64,000 nucleotides of DNA from an uncultured bacterium (GTDB taxonomy: Bacteria; Hinthialibacterota; Hinthialibacteria; Hinthialibacterales; Hinthialibacteraceae): NCBI GenBank assembly GCA_964556895.1, contig CAZKYC010000001.1, positions 29,371 through 93,370 of the forward strand, written 5' to 3'. Position 1 is the stretch's first letter. Each line of letters opens with the position of its first letter. A model generated the notes under the pieces. The model was not told the DNA's origin, did no database searches, and worked only from the letters and a program-made list of their open reading frames with translations. Below are positions 1,831 through 54,928 of the stretch, piece after piece. Made by a program: the position numbers and the translations under genes.

Positions 1831-2001
1831 TTGCTTCCTTTTACTGCCCTCTGCTTTCATCTGATCCCTTAATTCACTACAGTAGTTATTAGAAAGAAAA
1901 ATTTGGACCCAATTAGCCGCCTTCTGAGGGCAACAGTGAGCAAAAAAAGGGGGAGGGCGAGTCTCCCGACGAGCCGGGCAAACACAAAACAAGTTCATTT
2001 T

Positions 2002-2260
2002 AGGCTCATCCGGGATTTGGATACGTTCTTTCAAATTGAAATATAAATTTCCAGACACGATCTCAAGGATGATTTTTTTATCGTTGTATTTGGCATGGGT
2101 ACAACTCTGCTCGCTTCAGTGCGGCTCCGCCTTTTTGCACAGGCGCTCCCAGAGTTGCACCCATGCCCGAGTTGGATTGTCTATTATTGATAGGACAAAT
2201 ATCGTTTTTTGACCAAATTCCAGGTTATTCAGCATGGGAAGTACTCAAATATCGGAAGAA
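2002..2260 (+). mobile_element. MITE-like repeat family 1, copy 1a. Full length, with a conserved 66-nt core hairpin at 2097-2162.
   Basis: Flanked by a perfect 9-bp direct repeat GTTCATTTT (1993-2001 and 2261-2269). Imperfect terminal inverted repeat tccgggatttggatac / gtactcaaatatcgga. The core is gggtacaactctg...cagagttgcaccc, a 13-bp stem. Near-identical copies lie at 23124-23381 (reverse complement), 43874-44041 and 54484-54900. Confidence 0.75.
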
Positions 2261-2409
2261 GTTCATTTTATTGTGGCTCACAAGACGCCCTCCCCATTAT
2301 TCAAGATCACTACATCATCCTGCATTAGGCAGGCTTCTCGCGATGACACAAACATAATTACGGGTGGCAAGGGCAAGACCGCGAAGCGGGCAGCCCTTGA
2401 ATCGACAAC

Positions 2410-4119: not shown

Positions 4120-4233
4120 ACGACCCCGCTTCAATATCTGAAATATCTATTCGTTTCATTTGAATCGATCTCAACACCATTTCGCTTGACAGAAATAACG
4201 ACCTGTCAAAAAAAGACCGGCCTAATTAGGCAT

Positions 4234-4302
4234 GGGTGTATCTCTGAGAGCGCCTGTGCTTTAAAGCCGCTGAAAATTACACTCACAAATCCAGATACAC
4301 CC
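4234..4302. repeat. Solo copy of the family-1 core hairpin, diverged. It overlaps the last codons of the gene at 4283-5356.
   Basis: ggcatgggtgtatctctgagagcgcctgtgc...cagatacaccc shares the 5' stem and the gagcgcctgtgc loop block with family 1. The 3' stem arm encodes the C-terminal residues VGVYLDL* of the minus-strand gene. Confidence 0.55.
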
Positions 4303-5356
4303 CGACGCCAACGTAGTCGCCGTCTTGGCTAAACGCAGGAAAATTCAATGGCCGCCCGTTGTAATACTCTAACAACAAGCGCAGCGCCTTGCTTCGAAAC
4401 GGCCAGTCTTTAAACTCGACGCCCGCCGTGTAGCGCTGGTTAAGTTCCCAGTCGTCTTCTTCCCAGGTGGTGAAGTGCACGCCAAACACGGGGTGAATCG
4501 ACAAATGAGACCAGGGACGGTACTCGCCGCCAAACACCATCTCAAGCGGGTCGATGTCGCCCACGTCATCAAAGATATACACCGGCCCGCCATACACCCG
4601 CCAATCGGGTTGGCTGTAAGCCAGCGTCAAGTCGACCAGGTTACGGTCAAGTTGGCGGCCCAGAATATCAAGAAACGGCGGCAGCTCGCGCACGATATGG
4701 TCGTCGCCCAAATGGCCGCTGCGGTGCATGTATCTCACCCGCGCAGTGAAGTCGTCATAGTGAAAGATGAATGGAAACCCGACCTGAAAGTCAGTGTTTT
4801 CGAGATCGCCGCCGTTTTCCATATTGAAGTGGCCAAACACGCCGCCTTCAATGTTCATCTGGACGGTCAACCCTGGCGTGAACACATTCGTCCAACGATA
4901 GAGCGGCAACACTTCGCCAAAGCCAACCACGCCCGAGTTGTCCATATCATCGCTCGCGCGGTAACTTAAAAAGAACCGCGATTCCCATGGGTCGGCGACC
5001 AGCGGCTCAAACAAATCGCCCTTGGGGAACAACCCTTCGGTCGATTCGTTGATTTCGCTCGCCCAGTCAGTTTCATTCACTTCTTCACCTTGTTGTTCAA
5101 AGCGAACAGAACGAACGCCCGGCGCGCTTTGTAATGCGTCTTGAATCTCATTGCGAATAGCCTGATCTTGTGGAGCGTTGAGAATGATAATCGCGCCGGC
5201 TTTGACGATCACGTCCGCTTTAATTTGGTGAGTGGTTTGCAGAATCGCCGTCGCGTATCCACGTAAAAACTCATCGCTGGATGACTGCTGTGAAACCGAA
5301 GAAGAACAAACCACGCCTATGGCTAGTATCATCACGACCAAATGTTTAACCATCAT
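4283..5356 (-). CDS. Secreted, likely outer-membrane-associated protein with an N-terminal BON-like domain and a beta-rich C-terminal domain.
   Basis: 357 aa. Signal peptide MMVKHLVVMILAIGVVCSS. BON-like segment IKADVIVKAGAIIILNAPQDQAIRNEIQDALQSAPGVRSV. The C-terminus is rich in aromatics and Gly. Function not assignable. Confidence 0.5.
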   Translation of the reverse strand: MMVKHLVVMILAIGVVCSSSVSQQSSSDEFLRGYATAILQTTHQIKADVIVKAGAIIILNAPQDQAIRNEIQDALQSAPGVRSVRFEQQGEEVNETDWASEINESTEGLFPKGDLFEPLVADPWESRFFLSYRASDDMDNSGVVGFGEVLPLYRWTNVFTPGLTVQMNIEGGVFGHFNMENGGDLENTDFQVGFPFIFHYDDFTARVRYMHRSGHLGDDHIVRELPPFLDILGRQLDRNLVDLTLAYSQPDWRVYGGPVYIFDDVGDIDPLEMVFGGEYRPWSHLSIHPVFGVHFTTWEEDDWELNQRYTAGVEFKDWPFRSKALRLLLEYYNGRPLNFPAFSQDGDYVGVGVYLDL

Positions 5357-5445: not shown

Positions 5446-5521
5446 GGCCGGGGTGTGTCTCAGTGAGCGCCTGCGCCAAAAAGCGGAGCGGCGCCGAAGC
5501 GAACAGAGATGCACCCCGGCC
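5446..5521. repeat. Solo copy of the family-1 core hairpin. It lies just downstream of the 3' end of the M14 gene.
   Basis: Outer stem ggccggggtg / caccccggcc, 10 bp and perfect. The loop gtgagcgcctgcgccaaaaagcggagcggcgccgaagcgaacagag is nearly identical to the loop of copy 1b at 23222-23287. Confidence 0.65.
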
Positions 5522-23069: not shown

Positions 23070-23123
23070 TCTCAGAAACTTGGCGAGCTCGCGAAGCCGC
23101 CCACCAAGCCTGTTCAAATAAGG

Positions 23124-23381
23124 TTCTTCCGATATTTGAGTACTTCCCTTGCTGGATGACCTGGAATTTGGTCAAAAAACGATATTCATCCTATCAATAC
23201 TAGACAATCCTCCTCAGGCAAGGGTGCAACTCTGTGAGCGCCTGTGCAACAAAGCGGAGCGGCGCCGAAGCGAGTAGAGTTGTACCCATGCCAAATACAG
23301 CGATAAAAAAATCATCCTTGAAATGGTGTCTAAAAAAATTAATTCAATTTAAGAGAACGTATCCAAATCCCTGATGAGCCT
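23124..23381 (-). mobile_element. MITE-like repeat family 1, copy 1b. Full length, reverse orientation, core hairpin at 23222-23287.
   Basis: About 90% identical to copy 1a along all 258 bp. Flanked by similar 9-mers CAAATAAGG (23115-23123) and CAAATAACC (23382-23390), which I read as a roughly 7-bp target-site duplication CAAATAA. Confidence 0.75.
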
Positions 23382-23543
23382 CAAATAACCTTCAGCGGTG
23401 GGCGAACCCATCCTGCGGTGTTCCCCAGATAAATTTTCCCCGCACTCGTCGTTTTTCTGATCTCATACTATTCTACTACTGAACGAAAACATACCGCCTA
23501 ATGGCGCCAATCTTGTTACTGCTTACTGTAAATTCATAGGCTG

Positions 23544-24173
23544 ATGAAAGATCAACAAATGACAAAAATGAAATCAGGTTTTACCTTAATTGAATTGTTA
23601 ATTGTCGTCGCCATTATTGGCGTCCTCGCGGCCATCGCCGTGCCCAACTTTCTGAATGCGCAGATTCGCGCCAAGGTGGCGGCGGCCCAAAGCGACATGC
23701 GCGCGCTCGGAACCGCGCTCGAAATGTATTCACTCGACAACAACGCCTACCCGCCCTTTCGCCATGACATCAACGGCGAGTGGCGCTATAAGGGCGCGCT
23801 GGCGCGGCTGACCTCGCCAGTGTCATACATGAACACCATCCCCAACAGCGACCCATTTAATTCAGAGGCGCCATCGGCGTATGGCGGCGCAACCGACGAC
23901 GCCAATTATGGGTATACCTATGTCGATTACAAATCATTTTCGCCCAATAACTATTGGCCGTTGTGGGCCAAGCCGCTCAACATTCTGTGGGTGCTCTATA
24001 GTTTTGGCCCTGACCGCAACGATGACGTGGGCGTGGTGGCGATTGGTAAAGTGATCGGCCCGAATTTTGACATTCCCACATGGAACCCAAACCGGGTTCC
24101 CTATTCGTCATCAAATGGAATCATCTCCAACGGCGACCTCATGCGCTCCAACCACGGCGATCACAGTAAGTAG
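23544..24173 (+). CDS. Prepilin-type (GspG-like) pseudopilin paralog.
   Basis: MKSG|FTLIELLIVVAIIGVLAAIAVPNF prepilin motif. C-terminal SFGPDRNDD motif. 209 aa. Confidence 0.8.
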   Translation: MKDQQMTKMKSGFTLIELLIVVAIIGVLAAIAVPNFLNAQIRAKVAAAQSDMRALGTALEMYSLDNNAYPPFRHDINGEWRYKGALARLTSPVSYMNTIPNSDPFNSEAPSAYGGATDDANYGYTYVDYKSFSPNNYWPLWAKPLNILWVLYSFGPDRNDDVGVVAIGKVIGPNFDIPTWNPNRVPYSSSNGIISNGDLMRSNHGDHSK

Positions 24174-24298
24174 AAGTCAAGGAATTCTAAAAAAAAAAGA
24201 TAAAAAGATTGAAAAAACTAACCCACTAGATTCCTTCCTGTTCATTTACGCGTTATGTGTCTATAATTGCACAACTTGTTATATCAGCGGGGATCAAC

Positions 24299-24847
24299 GT
24301 GTCAAAAAAGAAAAACGGCTTTTGGGAAAGCCTTCGAGCGAACTATGATGAGATGCGAATCGTGTTTGTCTTTGAACATCTCCAAGAACAAGGATTTGAT
24401 TTAGACCAAATACTCCAATCAAATAATGTCTCAGACCGCATTCCACTCTTAAAAGCCTTCAAAGAATTTGAAAAACAAAAGCCTTGGTCAGATTTTGTTT
24501 TTGATAATGATGAGATATGTTATTTATTAGCGAGAATAGTAGATTATAGAGGAGTGTGTAGATTTCTTTATGATTTAGAAGACAAAAGTGTGTTAGAGCC
24601 AGATTTTAAACTTCATGAACATTCCGAAAAATATGATGACGAGAACGAGAACGACAAGTTACAGTTGCAAACAGACATAGAAAATGCTAAGAATTCTGTG
24701 AGTATTTTGTTGAAATACGAAATAATTGTAAAGAATGGAAGAAAATTTTCGTTAACTAAAGAAGGTAGAGAATCGTTTGTTAATGTACAGTATGAGAGAA
24801 TTGAAAAAAACGCAGTTCTTTCATATTGGAGGCCAAAGAAAGGATAA
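24299..24847 (+). CDS. Hypothetical acidic protein in the AT-rich islet. No recognisable domain.
   Basis: The ORF stays open from 24257. Candidate starts are the GTG at 24299, preceded by GGGGA, or the ATG at 24353. A TATAAT lies at about 24261. Composition is markedly AT-rich relative to the flanks. The C-terminal 40 aa (ILLKYEIIVKNGRKFSLTKEGRESF) loosely resemble a winged helix. Confidence 0.45.
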   Translation: MSKKKNGFWESLRANYDEMRIVFVFEHLQEQGFDLDQILQSNNVSDRIPLLKAFKEFEKQKPWSDFVFDNDEICYLLARIVDYRGVCRFLYDLEDKSVLEPDFKLHEHSEKYDDENENDKLQLQTDIENAKNSVSILLKYEIIVKNGRKFSLTKEGRESFVNVQYERIEKNAVLSYWRPKKG

Positions 24848-24852
24848 GAGCC

Positions 24853-25134
24853 ATGACAAATATCAGTCCTGATCGAATGATTGACGCTTATGGTCAGCTC
24901 ATTGAAGAAGATCCAAATTTGGTCGAATTTTTTTCCCGAATCAATGAAAAGAATACAATAAGGATACGTGATCTTGCTGGCCCTTTTCAGGATTACTACA
25001 ATGCGTTGCGTGGGTTTGGTTTTCTAGAAGCAGAAACTGACCATCTTAGCCGCGACACAAAAATAGTATTTGCTGAAACGGGGAAAAAGTTTTGGGAAAA
25101 ATACGGATCTAAAATCGAAGAGTTGCGTAACTAG
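24853..25134 (+). CDS. Hypothetical 93-aa protein in the AT-rich islet, translationally coupled to the upstream ORF.
   Basis: AAAGGA lies 8 nt before the ATG of MTNISPD. It overlaps or abuts the preceding ORF. No recognisable motif. Confidence 0.45.
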   Translation: MTNISPDRMIDAYGQLIEEDPNLVEFFSRINEKNTIRIRDLAGPFQDYYNALRGFGFLEAETDHLSRDTKIVFAETGKKFWEKYGSKIEELRN

Positions 25135-25163
25135 GAATTCATCTATATTACGACTTCTTATAA

Positions 25164-25190
25164 AGGCTCCTCCAAATGGAGCCTTTTTGT
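25164..25190. terminator. Bidirectional Rho-independent terminator between convergent genes.
   Basis: ggctcc-tccaaa-tggagcc hairpin with an A-tract on its 5' side and TTTTT on its 3' side. It lies between the 3' ends of 24853-25134 (+) and 25204-25806 (-). Confidence 0.7.
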
Positions 25191-25203
25191 ATTCTATATT
25201 CTA

Positions 25204-25806
25204 TCAATACGGCATGATCACGCCCTCGTGAGAGGCGTAGATCTCACCATTTGACTCAACGCCGTTTGAGATGTGATAGACGTGTTTGATTGCTTGTGAT
25301 GGTGTGTACATCCACATCATGTCTTCATCTAAATCCGGCCCCATGCTACTCAAAGTAAACGCTTGAGCGCCTAAATTATATCTTTCTCTTATCGTATTTG
25401 AATATTCATACAATGGATGGATTTTTCGCCCGTAGTTCCATCTTTCTTTGATCGCTTTTACATAAAACACGTCTTCTGGAATAGATGAAATATACGCCGT
25501 AGGGGTTGTCAATAGGGTGTATGAGTAGATTTCCGTTTGAAATTGAGCGCCTTGCGTTCCTTTTTGCGAATTAAACGCAGGAGAAAGGCTACTGTGATTA
25601 CCATCAAAATCAGGCGGGGTGTCTTTGTAGTCGAGATAATAGGCGTTAATCGCGTCTGACAGTTTTCCTAAGTCGGTCACTGCTTGAGCGAGATCAGCGC
25701 GAATTTGCGCCTTGGAGAATTTTGGCAGCGACACCGCGAATAAAAGCCCCAACACAACTACGACAACAATGATCTCAGCAATGTGAATTCGGCGAAGCGA
25801 TTTCAT
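25204..25806 (-). CDS. GspG-like pseudopilin paralog with a degenerate prepilin cleavage motif.
   Basis: Same fold signature as its neighbours (hydrophobic N-helix, ...SMGPDLDED motif). The leader reads MKSLRR-IHIAEIIVVVVVLGLL and lacks the Gly(-1)-Phe(+1) pair; the +5 Glu is kept. Confidence 0.65.
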   Translation of the reverse strand: MKSLRRIHIAEIIVVVVVLGLLFAVSLPKFSKAQIRADLAQAVTDLGKLSDAINAYYLDYKDTPPDFDGNHSSLSPAFNSQKGTQGAQFQTEIYSYTLLTTPTAYISSIPEDVFYVKAIKERWNYGRKIHPLYEYSNTIRERYNLGAQAFTLSSMGPDLDEDMMWMYTPSQAIKHVYHISNGVESNGEIYASHEGVIMPY

Positions 25807-25885
25807 GCGTCCCCCAAGAACTACGCGGATAAAGAATCCTAAAATGGTTACGTGTCAATTTATAGGGGGAGAAACACTATGGCGC

Positions 25886-26461
25886 TCAGCCTTTTTTGGC
25901 CTCGAGCGCCCGGCGGGCTTGGGAGAGGTGGCGCGATTGGTGAACGAGCAACAATACGACCCATTGGCCCACACTGACCTTCAACCACGACGCGGCGGGG
26001 GACGGCATTTTGGTTTTGGACGGGTCTTTTCCTTTGAGGTTTGAAATCACTTCGATGAGGTCGCCCTGCCAGCGTTCAAACTCTTCGAGCATCGGGTTGG
26101 TCTCAAGCGCGGCTTGAGGGACATACAGCGAAGGCGCTTTGAATCGCACCTTGGGCCGCTGCTCGCTTCCACTGGCGAGGTAGACGAACATGCGCTCAAA
26201 CATCGAATAGTGATAGCGGTCGGGGCGCTTTGACTCGTCGGCCTTCATCGACTCGACCACCTCGCCAAGGTTGGGCAGCATCTTCGACGACACTTCGATC
26301 AAATGTTGAAAACATTCCGCCGCCGACCAGCCGCCGTCGCTGGGGTGGGCCTGCCATAACGACGCGTCAGACGACTCAACGATACGACGCGCTTCGGCGT
26401 TGAGACGCTTGGCTTCATCAATCAAACTTGGTATGTCATCATCAGAATTAAATTGGATCAT
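25886..26461 (-). CDS. DinB/YfiT-like (DinB_2 superfamily) four-helix-bundle protein.
   Basis: GGWSAAECFQHLIEV and downstream His residues match the DinB_2 metal-binding pattern. 191 aa. Confidence 0.45.
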   Translation of the reverse strand: MIQFNSDDDIPSLIDEAKRLNAEARRIVESSDASLWQAHPSDGGWSAAECFQHLIEVSSKMLPNLGEVVESMKADESKRPDRYHYSMFERMFVYLASGSEQRPKVRFKAPSLYVPQAALETNPMLEEFERWQGDLIEVISNLKGKDPSKTKMPSPAASWLKVSVGQWVVLLLVHQSRHLSQARRALEAKKG

Positions 26462-27854: not shown

Positions 27855-28067
27855 CTATTTGGGGGGTATATCTACTGGGTCCCAGTAATTTTCTTCTATG
27901 AAGCCGGAACCGACTAGACTTCTACAGAAGGCAGGATGCTCAGTAAGCATTGCCTGAAGAAATGACTGCATTCGAGTCGCATCTTCTGGAAACTCTTCAC
28001 ATCCGGCCCATTCGTCCATTACCCTTTTTGCAATGGCAGCAGCCCAATCTTCAATAGGTTTGTTCAT
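27855..28067 (-). CDS. Small 70-aa hypothetical protein co-transcribed with the HNH endonuclease, overlapping it by 17 nt.
   Basis: Lies in the low-GC islet. It starts inside the 3' end of the HNH gene. No recognisable motif (MNKPIEDWAAAIAKRVMDEWAGCEEFPED...). Confidence 0.45.
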   Translation of the reverse strand: MNKPIEDWAAAIAKRVMDEWAGCEEFPEDATRMQSFLQAMLTEHPAFCRSLVGSGFIEENYWDPVDIPPK

Positions 28068-28653
28068 ATTGCTTCCTAACTTGCTTCAGTAGATACTCCC
28101 GAATGGGGTTTGTTTCTTCTGGTCGGGCAAAGTGGGCCATCTTATGGTGATGGGCGCACAAGACAGCGAGATTCCAAAGACCATCCTCTCCACCCAAGTA
28201 AAGAGGAATAATATGGTGAACTTCGATATATCTTTCACCGTCCGGCTTGATGAAGGTATTTTCGCAGCTGTCCATTAGGCATCGTGAACCAAGAAATTCT
28301 TTTGCCCTACTTGCCCACTGTGTTTTACGGACATAAGACTCAACAAGATACTCCTTGCGTTCAGGCGTTTCTCCAGAGATATCAAGCGTGTGTGTTTCAT
28401 CCAGTTCACTGTCCAGCCATTCAACACCCCTTAGCGTATAGCAACCGGACTTATCAAGGAATGATAGAAAGCCCTCGTCACGAAGTTCCTGTAGGAGTCG
28501 TCGAACCGTTGCCTGTGGTGTTTGTCCCCCGATACCAATGGCTTCATAATTGCCGTGTGTTTCATTGATTTGCTTGAGCGTGAAGGTTCGTGAACCTTGC
28601 CGATTGCAGAATTCCAGTACCAGGCTTTTCAATCTATCTCTTTGCCCTATCAT
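28051..28653 (-). CDS. HNH (His-Me finger) endonuclease with an N-terminal winged-helix-like domain.
   Basis: C-terminal HNH module CLMDSCEN...EVHHIIPLYLGGEDGLWNLAVLCAHHHKMAH. The N-terminal roughly 110 aa is a wH-like DNA-binding region. Low G+C relative to the flanks. RBS GGGGA. Confidence 0.8.
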   Translation of the reverse strand: MIGQRDRLKSLVLEFCNRQGSRTFTLKQINETHGNYEAIGIGGQTPQATVRRLLQELRDEGFLSFLDKSGCYTLRGVEWLDSELDETHTLDISGETPERKEYLVESYVRKTQWASRAKEFLGSRCLMDSCENTFIKPDGERYIEVHHIIPLYLGGEDGLWNLAVLCAHHHKMAHFARPEETNPIREYLLKQVRKQYEQTY

Positions 28654-38814: not shown

Positions 38815-39369
38815 ATGAACAAACGACAACTGAATCATATCCTTTGGCCTGCGTTGTGGATGATGGCAATACTTAGCCCCACAGCCCCTGGGCAAAGCCA
38901 AGAGGCGCGCCGCCCGTCAATTGAGTTGGACGCCTTTCGGCTCATCGTTGAACGCAACATCTTTGACCCCAGCCGCGAAAAGCCCGGAGGCGAAGCCCCT
39001 CCCATCGAGCGCGCCCCCCAGGCAGACGAAATCGTCTTAGTTGGAACCTTAGTCACCGAATCTCAACGTTTCGCCTTCTTTGACGGATCGTCTTCCAGCT
39101 ACCGCCGCGTGTTGACAGTCGGCGCAGACATCGCTGGCGGCGCCGTTGCGGCGATTGAGTCAGCGACCATCTCCATTCGTCTTGATGACAACACCTTTGA
39201 CCTGCCGATTGGCATGAGTCTAAGCAGAGAAGACGACCAGCCCTGGCGCATCGAAACCGTTAAGCGCCGCATAGAGCCTGAAAAAGAAGAAGACAACAAA
39301 CAACCGGCCCCCGCCAACGATATTCTACGAAAACTCATGGAACGACGCAGTCAGGAGCAAAATCAATGA
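38815..39369 (+). CDS. PilP/GspC-like periplasmic linker protein.
   Basis: Signal-anchor MNKRQLNHILWPALWMMAILSP. A Pro/Glu-rich linker. A C-terminal beta domain (VLVGTLVTESQRFAFFDGSSSSYRRV). It lies immediately upstream of the secretin genes. ATGA overlaps at both ends. Confidence 0.55.
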   Translation: MNKRQLNHILWPALWMMAILSPTAPGQSQEARRPSIELDAFRLIVERNIFDPSREKPGGEAPPIERAPQADEIVLVGTLVTESQRFAFFDGSSSSYRRVLTVGADIAGGAVAAIESATISIRLDDNTFDLPIGMSLSREDDQPWRIETVKRRIEPEKEEDNKQPAPANDILRKLMERRSQEQNQ

Positions 39370-40757
39370 AAGCCGTGCAAACCATCCTACTGATTTCTAC
39401 AATGATCTTCATCGCCCAGCCGTTGGTTGGCCAAGACCAACCCGCCAACGGCGACAATGAGATTCGCCTCAATTTTCGCGGGGCCAGCCTCGACGCCGTG
39501 CTCGATTATTTGAGTGAAGTTGCGGGGTATGTCATTGTCAAACAAACCGAAGTCGACGGCCAGATCGACGTGTGGAGCCGCCAGCCGCTCAACCAAGAAG
39601 AAGCCATCAACCTGCTCAACACGGTGCTTCACGAAAAAGGCTACGCCGCCTTACGAAACGGGCGCATCCTCACCGTGGTCGACCGCGACGACGCCCGAGA
39701 GAAAGACATCCCCGTCAAAATCGGCAACGAGCCGCGCGCGCTGCCCAAAACCGACGAGATGATCACTCAGATTATCCCGGTGCGTTACACCGACGCCATG
39801 GCGTTGATCGACAATTTATCGCCGCTCCTGCCTGAATACGCCGACCTGTCAGCCAATGAAAGCAGCAACGCGGTCATCATCACCGACACCCAGGCCAATG
39901 TTCGCCGCATGATGATGATTGTCCGCGCGCTCGACACCTCAATCTCAAGCATCTCGGCGATCAACGTCTATCGGCTGCAATACTCAGACGCGACTCAAAT
40001 CGCTGAGATCGTCAACGAACTGTTTGAAGTCGAAGACGATGACACCCGTGGACGCGGCGGCGGGCCGGGCGGGTTCTTTGGCCGCGGCGGGCGCGACGGC
40101 GGCAATGAGAATGAATCTGACAGCGAAGCGCGAAAGGCCGCCTCTCGCGTGGTTGCGGTCGCTGACGAAAACACCAACTCGCTCATCGTTAGCGCGCCCG
40201 AAGAATATATGTCCACCCTCACCGAACTCGTCGACAAAGTCGACCAGCCGGTCTCTGACATTACCGAGATCCAAGTGTTTCGCCTGGAATACGCCGACGC
40301 CTACGAAATGGCCGACCAGATCCAAGAGTTGTTCCCTGATGAATCGTCCCAAGAACAAACCACCTTGGCGCCGCGCTTCGGGCCAGGCGCGTTCTTTGGC
40401 CGCGACGGTGGACGAAACAACCAACAATCTGACGACAGCGAGCGCCAACTACAGCAAGCCACCGTGCGCAGCGTCGCCGACCCGCGCACAAACTCTGTTG
40501 TGGTGTTCGCCGCCCAAGAGACCATGGCCCAAATCGCCCAGATGGTTCAGCGGCTTGATTCAGACACATCGAAGAAACAGAAAGTGTTTGTCTACCGCCT
40601 CGAATACGCCGACGTCGACAACCTCGCCGAGATATTGCGCAACATCTTTGAATCTCAAAACACCAACATCAACCGAACCGCCGACACCAACCAAAACACG
40701 CTCTCAAACCGCCAAGTCAATTTAAACACAGCCGACAACGACCAGCCGTTTAACTAA
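39366..40757 (+). CDS. Secretin N-domain protein. It has a signal peptide, an N0-like domain and three secretin_N-type repeats, but no pore domain.
   Basis: Signal peptide MKAVQTILLISTMIFIAQPLVGQ. N0-like IRLNFRGASLDAVLDYLSEVAGYVIV. Three repeats of the form (I/V)xV(Y/F)RL(Q/E)Y(S/A)DA...(A/I)(E/D)I(V/L)...F, separated by Gly/Arg/Phe low-complexity linkers (GRGGGPGGFFGRGGRDGG; RFGPGAFFGRDGG). A real TAA stop at 40758. Confidence 0.75.
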   Translation: MKAVQTILLISTMIFIAQPLVGQDQPANGDNEIRLNFRGASLDAVLDYLSEVAGYVIVKQTEVDGQIDVWSRQPLNQEEAINLLNTVLHEKGYAALRNGRILTVVDRDDAREKDIPVKIGNEPRALPKTDEMITQIIPVRYTDAMALIDNLSPLLPEYADLSANESSNAVIITDTQANVRRMMMIVRALDTSISSISAINVYRLQYSDATQIAEIVNELFEVEDDDTRGRGGGPGGFFGRGGRDGGNENESDSEARKAASRVVAVADENTNSLIVSAPEEYMSTLTELVDKVDQPVSDITEIQVFRLEYADAYEMADQIQELFPDESSQEQTTLAPRFGPGAFFGRDGGRNNQQSDDSERQLQQATVRSVADPRTNSVVVFAAQETMAQIAQMVQRLDSDTSKKQKVFVYRLEYADVDNLAEILRNIFESQNTNINRTADTNQNTLSNRQVNLNTADNDQPFN

Positions 40758-40778: not shown

Positions 40779-41939
40779 ATGAAAACCAAACTGACCTCAT
40801 TCATCCTAATCACCCTACTTACAACGGCGACCGCCTTCGCCCAACGCGCGTTTAACTTCAACCAGACCCAAAACGCGTCAAGCGCTTCTGGAACGCAGCG
40901 CACCTACTATTCAAACGGCATGATCGGCGAAGCCATCATCGAAGCCGACCGCGACACGCGTTCAATCATCGTGATCGCCGACGACTACACCAACGAACAC
41001 ATCAAGCGAATCATCGAAAACCTCGACCGCCCCGTCCAACAGGTGTTGATCAAAGTGTTGTTCGTCGAAGTGACCTATCGCGATGATTATGACTTTGGCC
41101 TTGAAGGCGCCCTTGATCTCAACAACAGCCGCCCCGGCTCCAATGTGTTTGACACCGCCTTTGGCGTGGCCGCTGAGTCGGCGGGCGGGTTTTACCGCCT
41201 GCTTGAGAGCGACGTCAACGTAACCATCCGCGCCATTCAAGAAGTCGGCAAGACCGAAGTCTTGTCGCGCCCGTCGATTCTGACCCGAAACAATCAAGAA
41301 GCGGTCATCACAGTAGGGCAGGAAGTGCCCTTCATCACCAGCAGCCAGACCACCGAACAGGGCAACACCATCAACGTCATCCAATATGAAGACATCGGCA
41401 TCATCCTGCGAGTGACCCCCTTCATCACCAAAGACGGCCTGGTCGAGATGATTCTCGCCCCCGAAATTTCCACCATCACCGATGAAACCGTGCCCATTTC
41501 AGAGACCGTCAACTCGCCGGTGTTCGCGAAACGCTCAGCCGACACCGTGGTGGTGACCCCCAACGGCCAGACGGTGGTCATCGGCGGCATGATGGAAGAC
41601 AACAACATCGAAGTGGAAAACAAGGTCCCTATTTTGGGCGACATCCCACTGTTGGGCTCGATCTTTCGCCGCACTCAAAAAAACAACTCAAAAACCGAAC
41701 TGTTAATCTTTCTGACGCCCTATGTCATGGAAGGCCCCGAACGCCTAGTTGAGCGCACCGCCATCGAGCGCAATGAATCAGACCTGGTGCCGAAGGCGTT
41801 TACACCGGAACAAATCGAAAAATACTTCGACAGCCCCCAGCCCCAAAATGAGGGCGAGGCCAACGAAACCCAAAAAAGGGAACCCAACACGCCGCCCTCA
41901 CGCCCAAGACAATCAAACAGCAAAGGGCGGCCATACTAA
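40779..41939 (+). CDS. gspD: Secretin (GspD/PilQ family) pore subunit. It has its own signal peptide, a single N3-like domain and the secretin C-domain.
   Basis: Signal peptide MKTKLTSFILITLLTTATAFAQ. N3-like IIEADRDTRSIIVIADDYTNEHIKRIIENLD. Secretin domain VLSRPSILTRNNQEAVITVGQEVPFITS...VVIGGMMEDNNIEVENKVPILGDIPLLGSIFRRTQKNNSKTELLIFLTPYVM. Confidence 0.85.
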   Translation: MKTKLTSFILITLLTTATAFAQRAFNFNQTQNASSASGTQRTYYSNGMIGEAIIEADRDTRSIIVIADDYTNEHIKRIIENLDRPVQQVLIKVLFVEVTYRDDYDFGLEGALDLNNSRPGSNVFDTAFGVAAESAGGFYRLLESDVNVTIRAIQEVGKTEVLSRPSILTRNNQEAVITVGQEVPFITSSQTTEQGNTINVIQYEDIGIILRVTPFITKDGLVEMILAPEISTITDETVPISETVNSPVFAKRSADTVVVTPNGQTVVIGGMMEDNNIEVENKVPILGDIPLLGSIFRRTQKNNSKTELLIFLTPYVMEGPERLVERTAIERNESDLVPKAFTPEQIEKYFDSPQPQNEGEANETQKREPNTPPSRPRQSNSKGRPY

Positions 41940-43767: not shown

Positions 43768-43873
43768 TTTCGTGGAGTTGACCATAGTGGTTTTTATCTT
43801 AAATAGACTGTATGTGGTGATGGGGTGAGAACCCACCCTTCATTTGCTCTCTTCTTGATTTACACCCAGTGTG

Positions 43874-44041
43874 GCATGGGTACAACTCTACTCGCTTCAG
43901 TGCGGCTCCGCCTTTTTGCACAGGCGCTCACAGAGTTGCACCCATGCCTGAGTTGGATTGTCTATTATTGAAAGGACGAATATCGTTTTTTGACCCAATT
44001 CCAGGTCATCCATCAAGGGAAATACTCAAATTTCGGATGAA
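43874..44041 (+). mobile_element. MITE-like repeat family 1, copy 1c. It is 5'-truncated: it has the core hairpin at 43878-43943 and the right arm but no left arm.
   Basis: It aligns with copy 1a from ggcatggg through aatttcggatgaa. Confidence 0.7.
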
Positions 44042-44062
44042 CCTGTATTTTGATATTTCTCC

Positions 44063-54383: not shown

Positions 54384-54483
54384 GCCCTCCGATGATATAA
54401 TTATGATATCACTACCATATCATATTATACGCAAGAGTTAAATAAAAAGTTCAAAAAAAATTCCAAAGGGGAAAAATTTTAAA

Positions 54484-54900
54484 AATCCAGAAACCATGTC
54501 AAAACACAGCAACCTAATATCGGCTTGGGTGCAACTCTGGAAGCGCCTGTGCAAAAGGGCCTGAAAGCCCGCACTGAAGCGAGCAGAGATGTACCCAAGC
54601 CAGACACAGCAAAATCTCAATTCAATATACGGAAAAAACCTAAAATGAATGACCCCGCCCCAAAGGGCGAGGAATTAAACCCGAATTAGATAAAATCCAG
54701 AAACCATGTCAAAAACACAGCAACCTAATATCGGCTTGGGTGCAACTCTGTGAGCGCCTGTGCAAAAGGGCCTGAAAGCCCGCACTGAAGCGAGCAGAGT
54801 TGTACCCAAGCCAAATACAACGATAAAAAAATCATCCTTGAGATCGTGTCTGGAAATTTTAATTCAATTTGAGAGAACGTATCCAAATCCCGGATGAGCC
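54484..54900 (-). mobile_element. MITE-like repeat family 1, tandem pair. D1 is a partial copy with its core at 54527-54596. D2 has its core at 54738-54807 plus the full left arm. Both are in reverse orientation.
   Basis: The block aaaatccagaaaccatgtcaaaa(a)cacagcaacctaatatcggcttgggtgcaactctg occurs twice, 208 bp apart. The left arm at 54808-54900 matches the left arm of copy 1a at about 90%. The right arm belongs to a different subtype (aagccgatattaggttgctgtgtttttgacatgg...). Confidence 0.7.
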
Positions 54901-54928
54901 TTTTTTTTGCAAAAATCTATAAACCGAG

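Follow-up and report, generated by a model that had tools for sequence, protein, structure and literature searches.

A probable non-autonomous MITE family with a conserved hairpin core in an uncultivated relative of Candidatus Hinthialibacter antarcticus

In the 64-kb stretch of DNA analysed here (the window, taken at its full length), a short repeated element was found that we interpret, with a probability of about 85%, as a non-autonomous MITE family in an uncultivated relative of Candidatus Hinthialibacter antarcticus. A complete member is about 260 bp long. It begins with an imperfect terminal inverted repeat of 22 bp (GGYTCWTCCGGKATTTGGATAC), continues with a ~67-bp left arm, a rod-like hairpin core of 76–80 nt, and a ~75-bp right arm, and closes with the inverted terminal repeat. 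The preliminary description, made from the window alone, had called the family MITE-like, and this designation agreed with what we observed. The elements were 222–262 bp long with no conserved reading frame, ended in imperfect terminal inverted repeats of 22 bp, and carried duplications of fixed length and different sequence on independent copies. Multiple copies were dispersed between genes in both orientations and in two species, and their presence or absence varied between genomes.

Two full-length copies were present in the window. Copy 1 (260 bp; 2003..2262, plus strand) comprised the left terminal repeat (2003–2024), the left arm (to 2091), the hairpin core (2092–2167), the right arm, and the right terminal repeat (2241–2262). 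Its 22-bp terminal inverted repeats were imperfect (GGCTCATCCGGGATTTGGATAC/GTACTCAAATATCGGAAGAAGT), and the target-site duplication TCATTTTA was located on the left at 1995..2002 and on the right at 2263..2270. Copy 2 (259 bp; 23122..23380, minus strand) had terminal repeats at 23359–23380 and 23122–23143 and a core at 23217–23292, and its target-site duplication was located at 23114..23121 (TCAAATAA on the plus strand, that is, TTATTTGA on the element strand) and 23381..23388. When the window was searched by BLAST with positions 1993–2269 as the query, copy 2 showed 88.5% identity with copy 1 (23124–23389, minus strand; query 1–268).

The ends of the elements were set from an alignment of the family including the window copies and the H. 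antarcticus copies, and this shifted several of the boundaries first proposed. The element had been placed at 2002–2260 (~259 bp) and was corrected to 2003–2262 (260 bp). The 9-bp direct repeat GTTCATTTT reported at 1993–2001 and 2261–2269 was present, but the perfect repeat was 10 bp (GTTCATTTTA; 1993–2002 and 2261–2270), and the target-site duplication was 8 bp. The right tip of copy 1 is GT, in contrast to the family consensus CC, the elements otherwise having GG...CC ends. Therefore, the duplication of copy 1 can be read either as 8 bp beside a mutated tip or as 10 bp beside a tip that is 2 bp shorter. The reverse copy had been given as 23124–23381; its flanks were as described, but its ends were at 23122–23380, by which a 7/9 match became a perfect 8/8 duplication. 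Likewise, the 16-nt termini quoted as imperfect inverted repeats existed and matched at 12/16 positions, but the true termini were 22 bp.

We compared the 8 bases on each side of 12 elements in which neither end was missing; two of these came from the window and the other ten from H. antarcticus contigs. Seven elements were flanked by perfect 8/8 duplications, no two of which had the same sequence: window copy 1 (TCATTTTA), window copy 2 (TTATTTGA), L081 (AAAAAAAT), L088 (TTAATTCT), L092 (TTTTTTTA), the L093 tandem dimer (ATGTTTTT), and L096 (TAATTTAT). L090 and L097 matched at 7/8 positions, and L087 at 6/8. L082 and L084, which are intact elements without a duplication, matched at 3–4/8 positions. 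The offset controls gave a mean of 2.4/8 and no perfect match in 384 comparisons. The A+T content of the duplicated sites was 90% in genomes with a G+C content of ~53%. These perfect, A+T-rich duplications are the mark left by a transposase that cuts its target with an 8-bp stagger, in accordance with the initial reading of the A+T-rich duplicated flank as a trace of insertion.

Seven loci in the window carried the core. Two were the full copies, one was a copy without the left arm, two were variants arranged in tandem, and the remaining two were decayed cores. The preliminary description had claimed at least five occurrences in 64 kb, a number borne out by these loci, several of which were truncated or decayed. 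The copy without the left arm (43873..44043, plus strand) consisted of the core (43873–43948) and a complete right arm with the right terminal repeat (44022–44043). The first member of the tandem pair (54692..54900, minus strand) had the left terminal repeat (54879–54900), the left arm, the core (54733–54812), and a short alternative right tail (R'). The second member (54481..54640, minus strand) had a shortened left arm beginning with GGTTTTTTCC at 54640, preceded by TCATTTTA, then the core (54522–54601) and the R' tail. A terminator-like hairpin was observed between these two members (54653–54672, minus strand). The decayed core-only copy at 5446..5521 (minus strand) retained the hairpin with compensatory changes, its arms were unrecognisable, and it was located ~35 bp downstream of an M14 peptidase gene in the sense orientation. 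In the strongly decayed core at 4229..4309 (minus strand), the hairpin arms GGGTGTATCT and AGATACACCC were still complementary, remnants of the R' tail followed, and the stop codon of a DUF1207 gene (4283–4285) fell within the core.

The BLAST search described above detected the same loci. The 1993–2269 query matched 43872–44041 (plus strand; query 99–268, 92%, core and right arm), 54733–54901 (minus strand; query 10–175, 93%, left arm and core), 54522–54602 (minus strand; query 99–175, 88%, core), and core fragments at 5459–5516 and 4229–4259 (minus strand; 81–90%). Two patterns derived from the core each gave 6–7 matches in the window, as opposed to 0.00–0.03 expected from shuffled sequences, and a covariance model of the core detected six complete cores and one decayed core. 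The element is modular, consisting of left arm, hairpin core, and right arm, and some loci lack one or more of these parts. Head-to-tail pairs were found in both species (54481–54900 in the window and 403–889 of L093). The L093 dimer was surrounded as a whole by a single perfect 8-bp duplication (ATGTTTTT), and at its junction a terminal-repeat-like sequence internal to the right arm (ATGGCCATCC) met a true left end. After insertion, the elements would have decayed through truncation and point mutation, and some would have come to form tandem pairs. The window copies diverged from one another by 7–12% and therefore give no sign of current activity.

All cores in the window lay at or between the ends of genes, in both orientations and beside functionally unrelated genes: thioredoxin and ABC permease, two pseudopilins, HD hydrolase and flavin reductase, Band-7 and cobalamin adenosyltransferase, and M14 peptidase, DUF1207, and ABC permease. 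Orientation with respect to the neighbouring genes was split ~10:7, gene calls on the short contigs being rough. The spacer between the thioredoxin and ABC permease genes was 628 bp in the window versus 131 and 135 bp in two relatives, in which the element was absent. In the other direction, a decayed copy was located beside a PNP_UDP_1 gene in H. antarcticus, and none was found there in the window. The unrelated contexts, the two orientations, and the spacer without the element in two relatives support the earlier view that the element is mobile and not a fixed neighbour of conserved genes.

As regards the empty sites that the preliminary description had suggested looking for, the orthologous spacer was short in two relatives, but an empty allele with alignable flanks was not obtained from the relatives' spacers or from the Logan contigs of the source samples. 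The relatives are too diverged for a base-level comparison, the ABC-2 permease beside copy 1 showing 73% identity with the Candidatus Hinthialibacter antarcticus protein (GCA_030765645.1) and 64% identity with that of a second uncultivated relative. These identities place the window in an uncultivated member of this lineage (Hinthialibacterota/OLB16). In addition, the Logan contigs of the source samples break near the elements: contigs of SRR7048221 and SRR7048222 were 100% identical to the window and stopped within ~30 bp of elements (L075 at window position 1974 and L099 at 54878). Exact-protein look-ups of the flanking genes returned only short Logan contigs, and other look-ups, one of them with the identical protein P0001 from the homology search, gave no record. 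In the H. antarcticus MAG, the site was occupied as in the JGI contig.

Several other features of the window were observed. The DUF1207 gene (4283–5356, minus strand) was bracketed by the two decayed cores in the same orientation, one upstream (5446–5521) and the other over its stop codon (4229–4309). In H. antarcticus, only 98 bp separated the ABC permease gene from the M14 peptidase gene, and this interval contained no DUF1207 gene. This arrangement suggests that DUF1207 was gained or lost via the repeats or that a MITE-flanked segment moved. An integron attC cassette was rejected as an account of the core-flanked DUF1207 gene because an array, an integrase, and R'/R'' core sites were all missing. 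The region 24001–26000, which adjoins copy 2 and the pseudopilin genes, had a GC content of 0.41 versus ~0.53 elsewhere, and its ORFs at 24257–24847 and 25204–25806 had no Pfam match; this region may be acquired DNA. In the type II secretion/pilus cluster (30.4–41.9 kb), the secretin was split into two ORFs 21 bp apart, one containing N0 and Secretin_N (39366–40757) and the other the Secretin domain (40779–41939). The split could be genuine, a frameshift, or an assembly error. A stand-alone ORF of 200 aa with an HNH endonuclease domain was located at 28051–28653 (minus strand).

The family was also found in Ca. Hinthialibacter antarcticus of Ace Lake, in 18 JGI contigs and the NCBI MAG. These 18 contigs, with 19 copies, were the result of scanning 241 million JGI metagenome records with a pattern from the left part of the core, and they belonged to only two samples, Ga0222672 and Ga0222663; copies without the core are invisible to this pattern. 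One of the 18 contigs encoded a protein 100% identical to a protein of the H. antarcticus MAG, and the MITE occupied the same place in the MAG, consistent with the JGI copies being those of H. antarcticus. The left end was GGTTCTTCCGGTATTTGGATAC in H. antarcticus versus GGCTCATCCGGGATTTGGATAC in the window, and the right end was GTACTCACTTACCGGATGAACC versus GTACTCAAATATCGGAAGAACC. Most intact copies were 258–263 bp long. A short form of 232 bp had lost ~30 bp from its left arm, and the left-arm deletion in L096 (222 bp) was larger. The 22-bp terminal repeats matched each other at 14–17 of 22 positions within an element and were conserved across copies and both species.

The covariance model detected one core in each of two ~21-kb stretches of H. 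antarcticus and no core in 40 kb of a third relative. A solo left terminus was observed in this third relative (L079, 8311–8332, minus strand; GGCTCATCCGGGATTTGAATCC), identical to the window end at 20/22 positions and located just downstream of a 311-aa gene that has no counterpart at this place in the window. This terminus could have been left behind by a lost copy, or it could belong to a related element whose interior is different. Among viral contigs, the core pattern gave no match, and the single match to the terminal-repeat pattern lay inside a GC-rich ORF and was judged to be due to chance. A scan of a genome collection with a pattern of the GC-rich right half of the core (GCRCAGGCGCTNNNNGAGNNNCACCC) gave at least 74 single matches in high-GC genomes, none of them homologous by BLAST, and these were also regarded as chance.

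We scanned the 50 longest ORFs of the window (all but one at least 150 aa) against Pfam. None of them contained a DDE, Y1, or serine/tyrosine recombinase domain, which is in line with the initial statement that the window contains no transposase; the ORFs represented housekeeping, type II secretion/pilus, and other genes. A parent element with the same termini, also proposed at the outset as something to search for, did not emerge: no autonomous element with matching ends was present in the window, in ~100 kb of relatives' DNA, or in the 18 metagenome contigs, and no pair of matching termini enclosed more than a MITE in any locus compared. In the mechanism we propose, a DDE transposase supplied in trans by an autonomous element elsewhere in the genome would insert the non-coding element, and its 8-bp staggered cuts in A+T-rich intergenic DNA would generate the flanking 8-bp direct repeats.

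As judged from the sequence of the element, there is about an even chance that an ISL3-type transposase acts in trans. This assignment is based on the 8-bp A+T-rich duplication and the GGYTCWTCCGG termini, that is, on duplication length and ~8–16 nt of terminal similarity. ISL3 elements generate 8-bp repeats with a possible AT-rich preference (PMC3469429), and the duplications seen here were likewise 8 bp and A+T-rich (90%). Published ISL3 ends include GGCTCTTCGCGG... (ISArsp7), GGGTATCCGGAATTTCTGG..., and GGGTATCCGGAATTTCTGGTTGAT (ISPst2), and examples of ISL3 duplications are TTTTTAAA and CAAAAAAG (PMC6305408). The same criteria led to the attribution to ISL3 of a 187-nt Microcystis MITE that has GGCTCTTCG ends and is flanked by 8-nt repeats (PMC11448079). 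The present ends have GG(C/T)TC(T/A)TC in common with the ISArsp7/Microcystis type and ATCCGG(G/A)ATTT in common with ISPst2. Terminal repeats of the ISL3 family are imperfect, ~15–40 bp long, and start with GG, often as GGCTCTT. When compared with the three published ISL3 examples, GGCTCATCC and GGTTCTTCC matched GGCTCTTCG at 7/9 positions, and the present ends matched ISPst2 (GGGTATCCGGAATTT) at 12/15 aligned positions with one gap.

Because no parent was found, the transposase family is not fixed, and another family that makes 8-bp duplications (IS6, IS1595, IS256, ISAs1, or IS66) is a less likely but reasonable source of the mobility. Some IS6 ends begin with GGTTCT or GGCACT, and the IS6 consensus is GGTTCTGTTGCAAAG or GGCACTGTTGCAAA. 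The Ace Lake copies begin with GGTTCT like some of these IS6 ends, but past the first 6 nt the present ends differ from the IS6 consensus. IS6 makes 8-bp repeats, and two IS6-derived MITEs have been catalogued (PMC7986276). On the other hand, IS6 moves through cointegrates, a route that is harder to reconcile with short copies scattered over the chromosome between intact duplications. The present ends also have ATCCGGRATTT in common with ISPst2, and GGCTCTTC in common with the ISArsp7 and Microcystis ISL3 elements, which would favour an ISL3-type transposase over these families.

The core forms a rod-like hairpin of ~76–80 nt, and the same rod was obtained for 24 of 24 cores, with folding energies of −32 to −53 kcal/mol and z-scores of −3 to −9. 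The rod has an outer stem of 9 bp, a middle stem of 8 bp, a further stem of 5 bp that includes a G·U pair, a GTGC/GCAC stem, and an apical GC hairpin. Changes on both sides were found in five base pairs (nine cells); the pair count was reached in 4/500 shuffles and the cell count in 0/500. Compensatory changes at the stem base include AT/AT to TT/AA, CG/CG, and GC/GC, although the signal of the core came mostly from conservation and less from covariation. The apical helix occurred in two non-homologous versions, GCGGCTCCGC and GGGCTTTCAGGCCC, which differ by 4 nt. Since this indel breaks any frame, a conserved peptide in the core was ruled out. Together with the fact that only mechanical ORFs (64–76 aa) overlap copy 1, this agrees with the earlier claim that the element is too small to encode a protein. 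Rfam gave no match for the whole window at gathering thresholds or for the element at E ≤ 10, and no tRNA or tmRNA was detected in the window. Simple scans of the core called neither a terminator nor a promoter, the inner hairpin being followed only by TTAT or TTTT(T).

Between the window and H. antarcticus copies, identity was 84% in the core, 75–78% in the terminal repeats, and 57–60% in the arms; as the H. antarcticus copies were found by a core-derived pattern, the left half of the core looks more conserved than it is. The window, which was searched without that bias, contained two core-only remnants, one copy without the left arm, and no arm-only remnants. Both core-only remnants of the window and the decayed H. 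antarcticus copies L086 and L089 were in the sense orientation and coincided with a stop codon or followed it closely, although these cases are few. No other part of the element is as conserved as the core, which also persists after the arms have decayed. The core is therefore probably under constraint: it may act in cis for the element, or it may form a hairpin that the host tolerates or uses at gene ends. More tentatively, the core may be a functional module, cis-acting for propagation or retained by the host as an RNA or DNA hairpin at gene 3' ends. The 84% core identity, the replacement of the apical helix, the compensatory changes, the presence of core-only but not arm-only copies in the window, and the sense-oriented position of the four decayed copies at stop codons fit this reading, which we nevertheless hold to be a doubtful one. 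A hairpin retained by the host could, for example, stabilise transcript ends, serve as a processing site, or terminate transcription weakly.

The same properties of the core bear on two accounts that dispense with a MITE, both of which appear highly improbable. In one, the core would be a REP/REPIN palindrome spread by a RAYT (HUH/Y1) transposase, the core being mobile and the arms incidental. Such a palindrome would be suited by the hairpin, which is long and symmetric and shows compensatory changes, and by the core-only copies (5446–5521 and 4229–4309 in the window, and L089). The core-only copies, however, keep arm remnants on one side and look like decayed MITEs, and both arms travel together with the core as a single unit within inverted repeats, with the 8-bp duplications lying outside the palindrome. 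REP/REPIN sequences are not known to have terminal inverted repeats apart from the hairpin or to create target duplications, and no Y1 transposase domain was found among the 50 window ORFs scanned.

The other account holds that the repeats are not mobile and constitute a conserved cis-regulatory region or a family of small-RNA genes beside particular genes. This would accommodate a structured, highly conserved core and the position of several decayed cores just downstream of stop codons in the sense orientation. It is opposed by the flanking genes, which are unrelated and stand in both orientations, by the orthologous spacer of relatives, which lacks the element, and by Rfam, in which nothing matched even at E ≤ 10. 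A fixed regulatory region also leaves the inverted termini and the differing target duplications unexplained. A mobile, non-autonomous MITE family is thus the reading we prefer.

Among known systems, the family resembles the ISL3-derived 187-nt MITE of Microcystis aeruginosa in being short and non-coding, in having imperfect inverted repeats starting from GGCTCTTC or GGYTCWTC and 8-nt repeats, and in its stem-loop potential and many intergenic copies (PMC11448079). It differs from the Microcystis MITE in that there is no similarity past the first ~8 terminal bases, the host phylum is Hinthialibacterota, the ISL3 source is putative, and the central hairpin is more conserved than the termini. 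Correia elements (CREE/NEMIS) of Neisseria occur about once per 10–20 kb, are intergenic, and have inverted termini and whole-element hairpin potential; they are often located at gene ends, and their RNA hairpin can affect transcripts. The present family is comparable to Correia elements in density, intergenic location, inverted termini, and placement at gene ends, whereas Correia elements duplicate TA instead of 8 bp, are ~105–155 bp long, and have unrelated ends. A conserved palindromic core with compensatory changes, mosaic copies, and tandem pairs are shared with REPIN, BIME, and ERIC-type palindromes. Unlike the present elements, these palindromes are without bounded inverted termini and target duplications, and REPINs need a RAYT, not a DDE transposase.

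These elements represent an abundant MITE family, previously undescribed, in Hinthialibacterota/OLB16, a candidate phylum for which metagenomes are the only source. The density of about one copy per 10 kb estimated at first lies within the range that we obtained, roughly one copy per 9–20 kb. If the regions sampled are representative, a genome would contain some hundreds of copies. The breaks of Logan contigs near two MITE copies fit the fragmentation of short-read assemblies by repeats, and the elements could mark insertion polymorphisms at the strain level. Since they are located at the ends of genes, they could influence gene expression or give rise to rearrangements. The element belongs to an ordinary class in a poorly known phylum and leaves the current understanding of transposons unchanged. 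Only the structured core, which is strongly conserved, sets it apart from that class, and this conservation raises the testable question of whether a hairpin carried as MITE cargo has a function.
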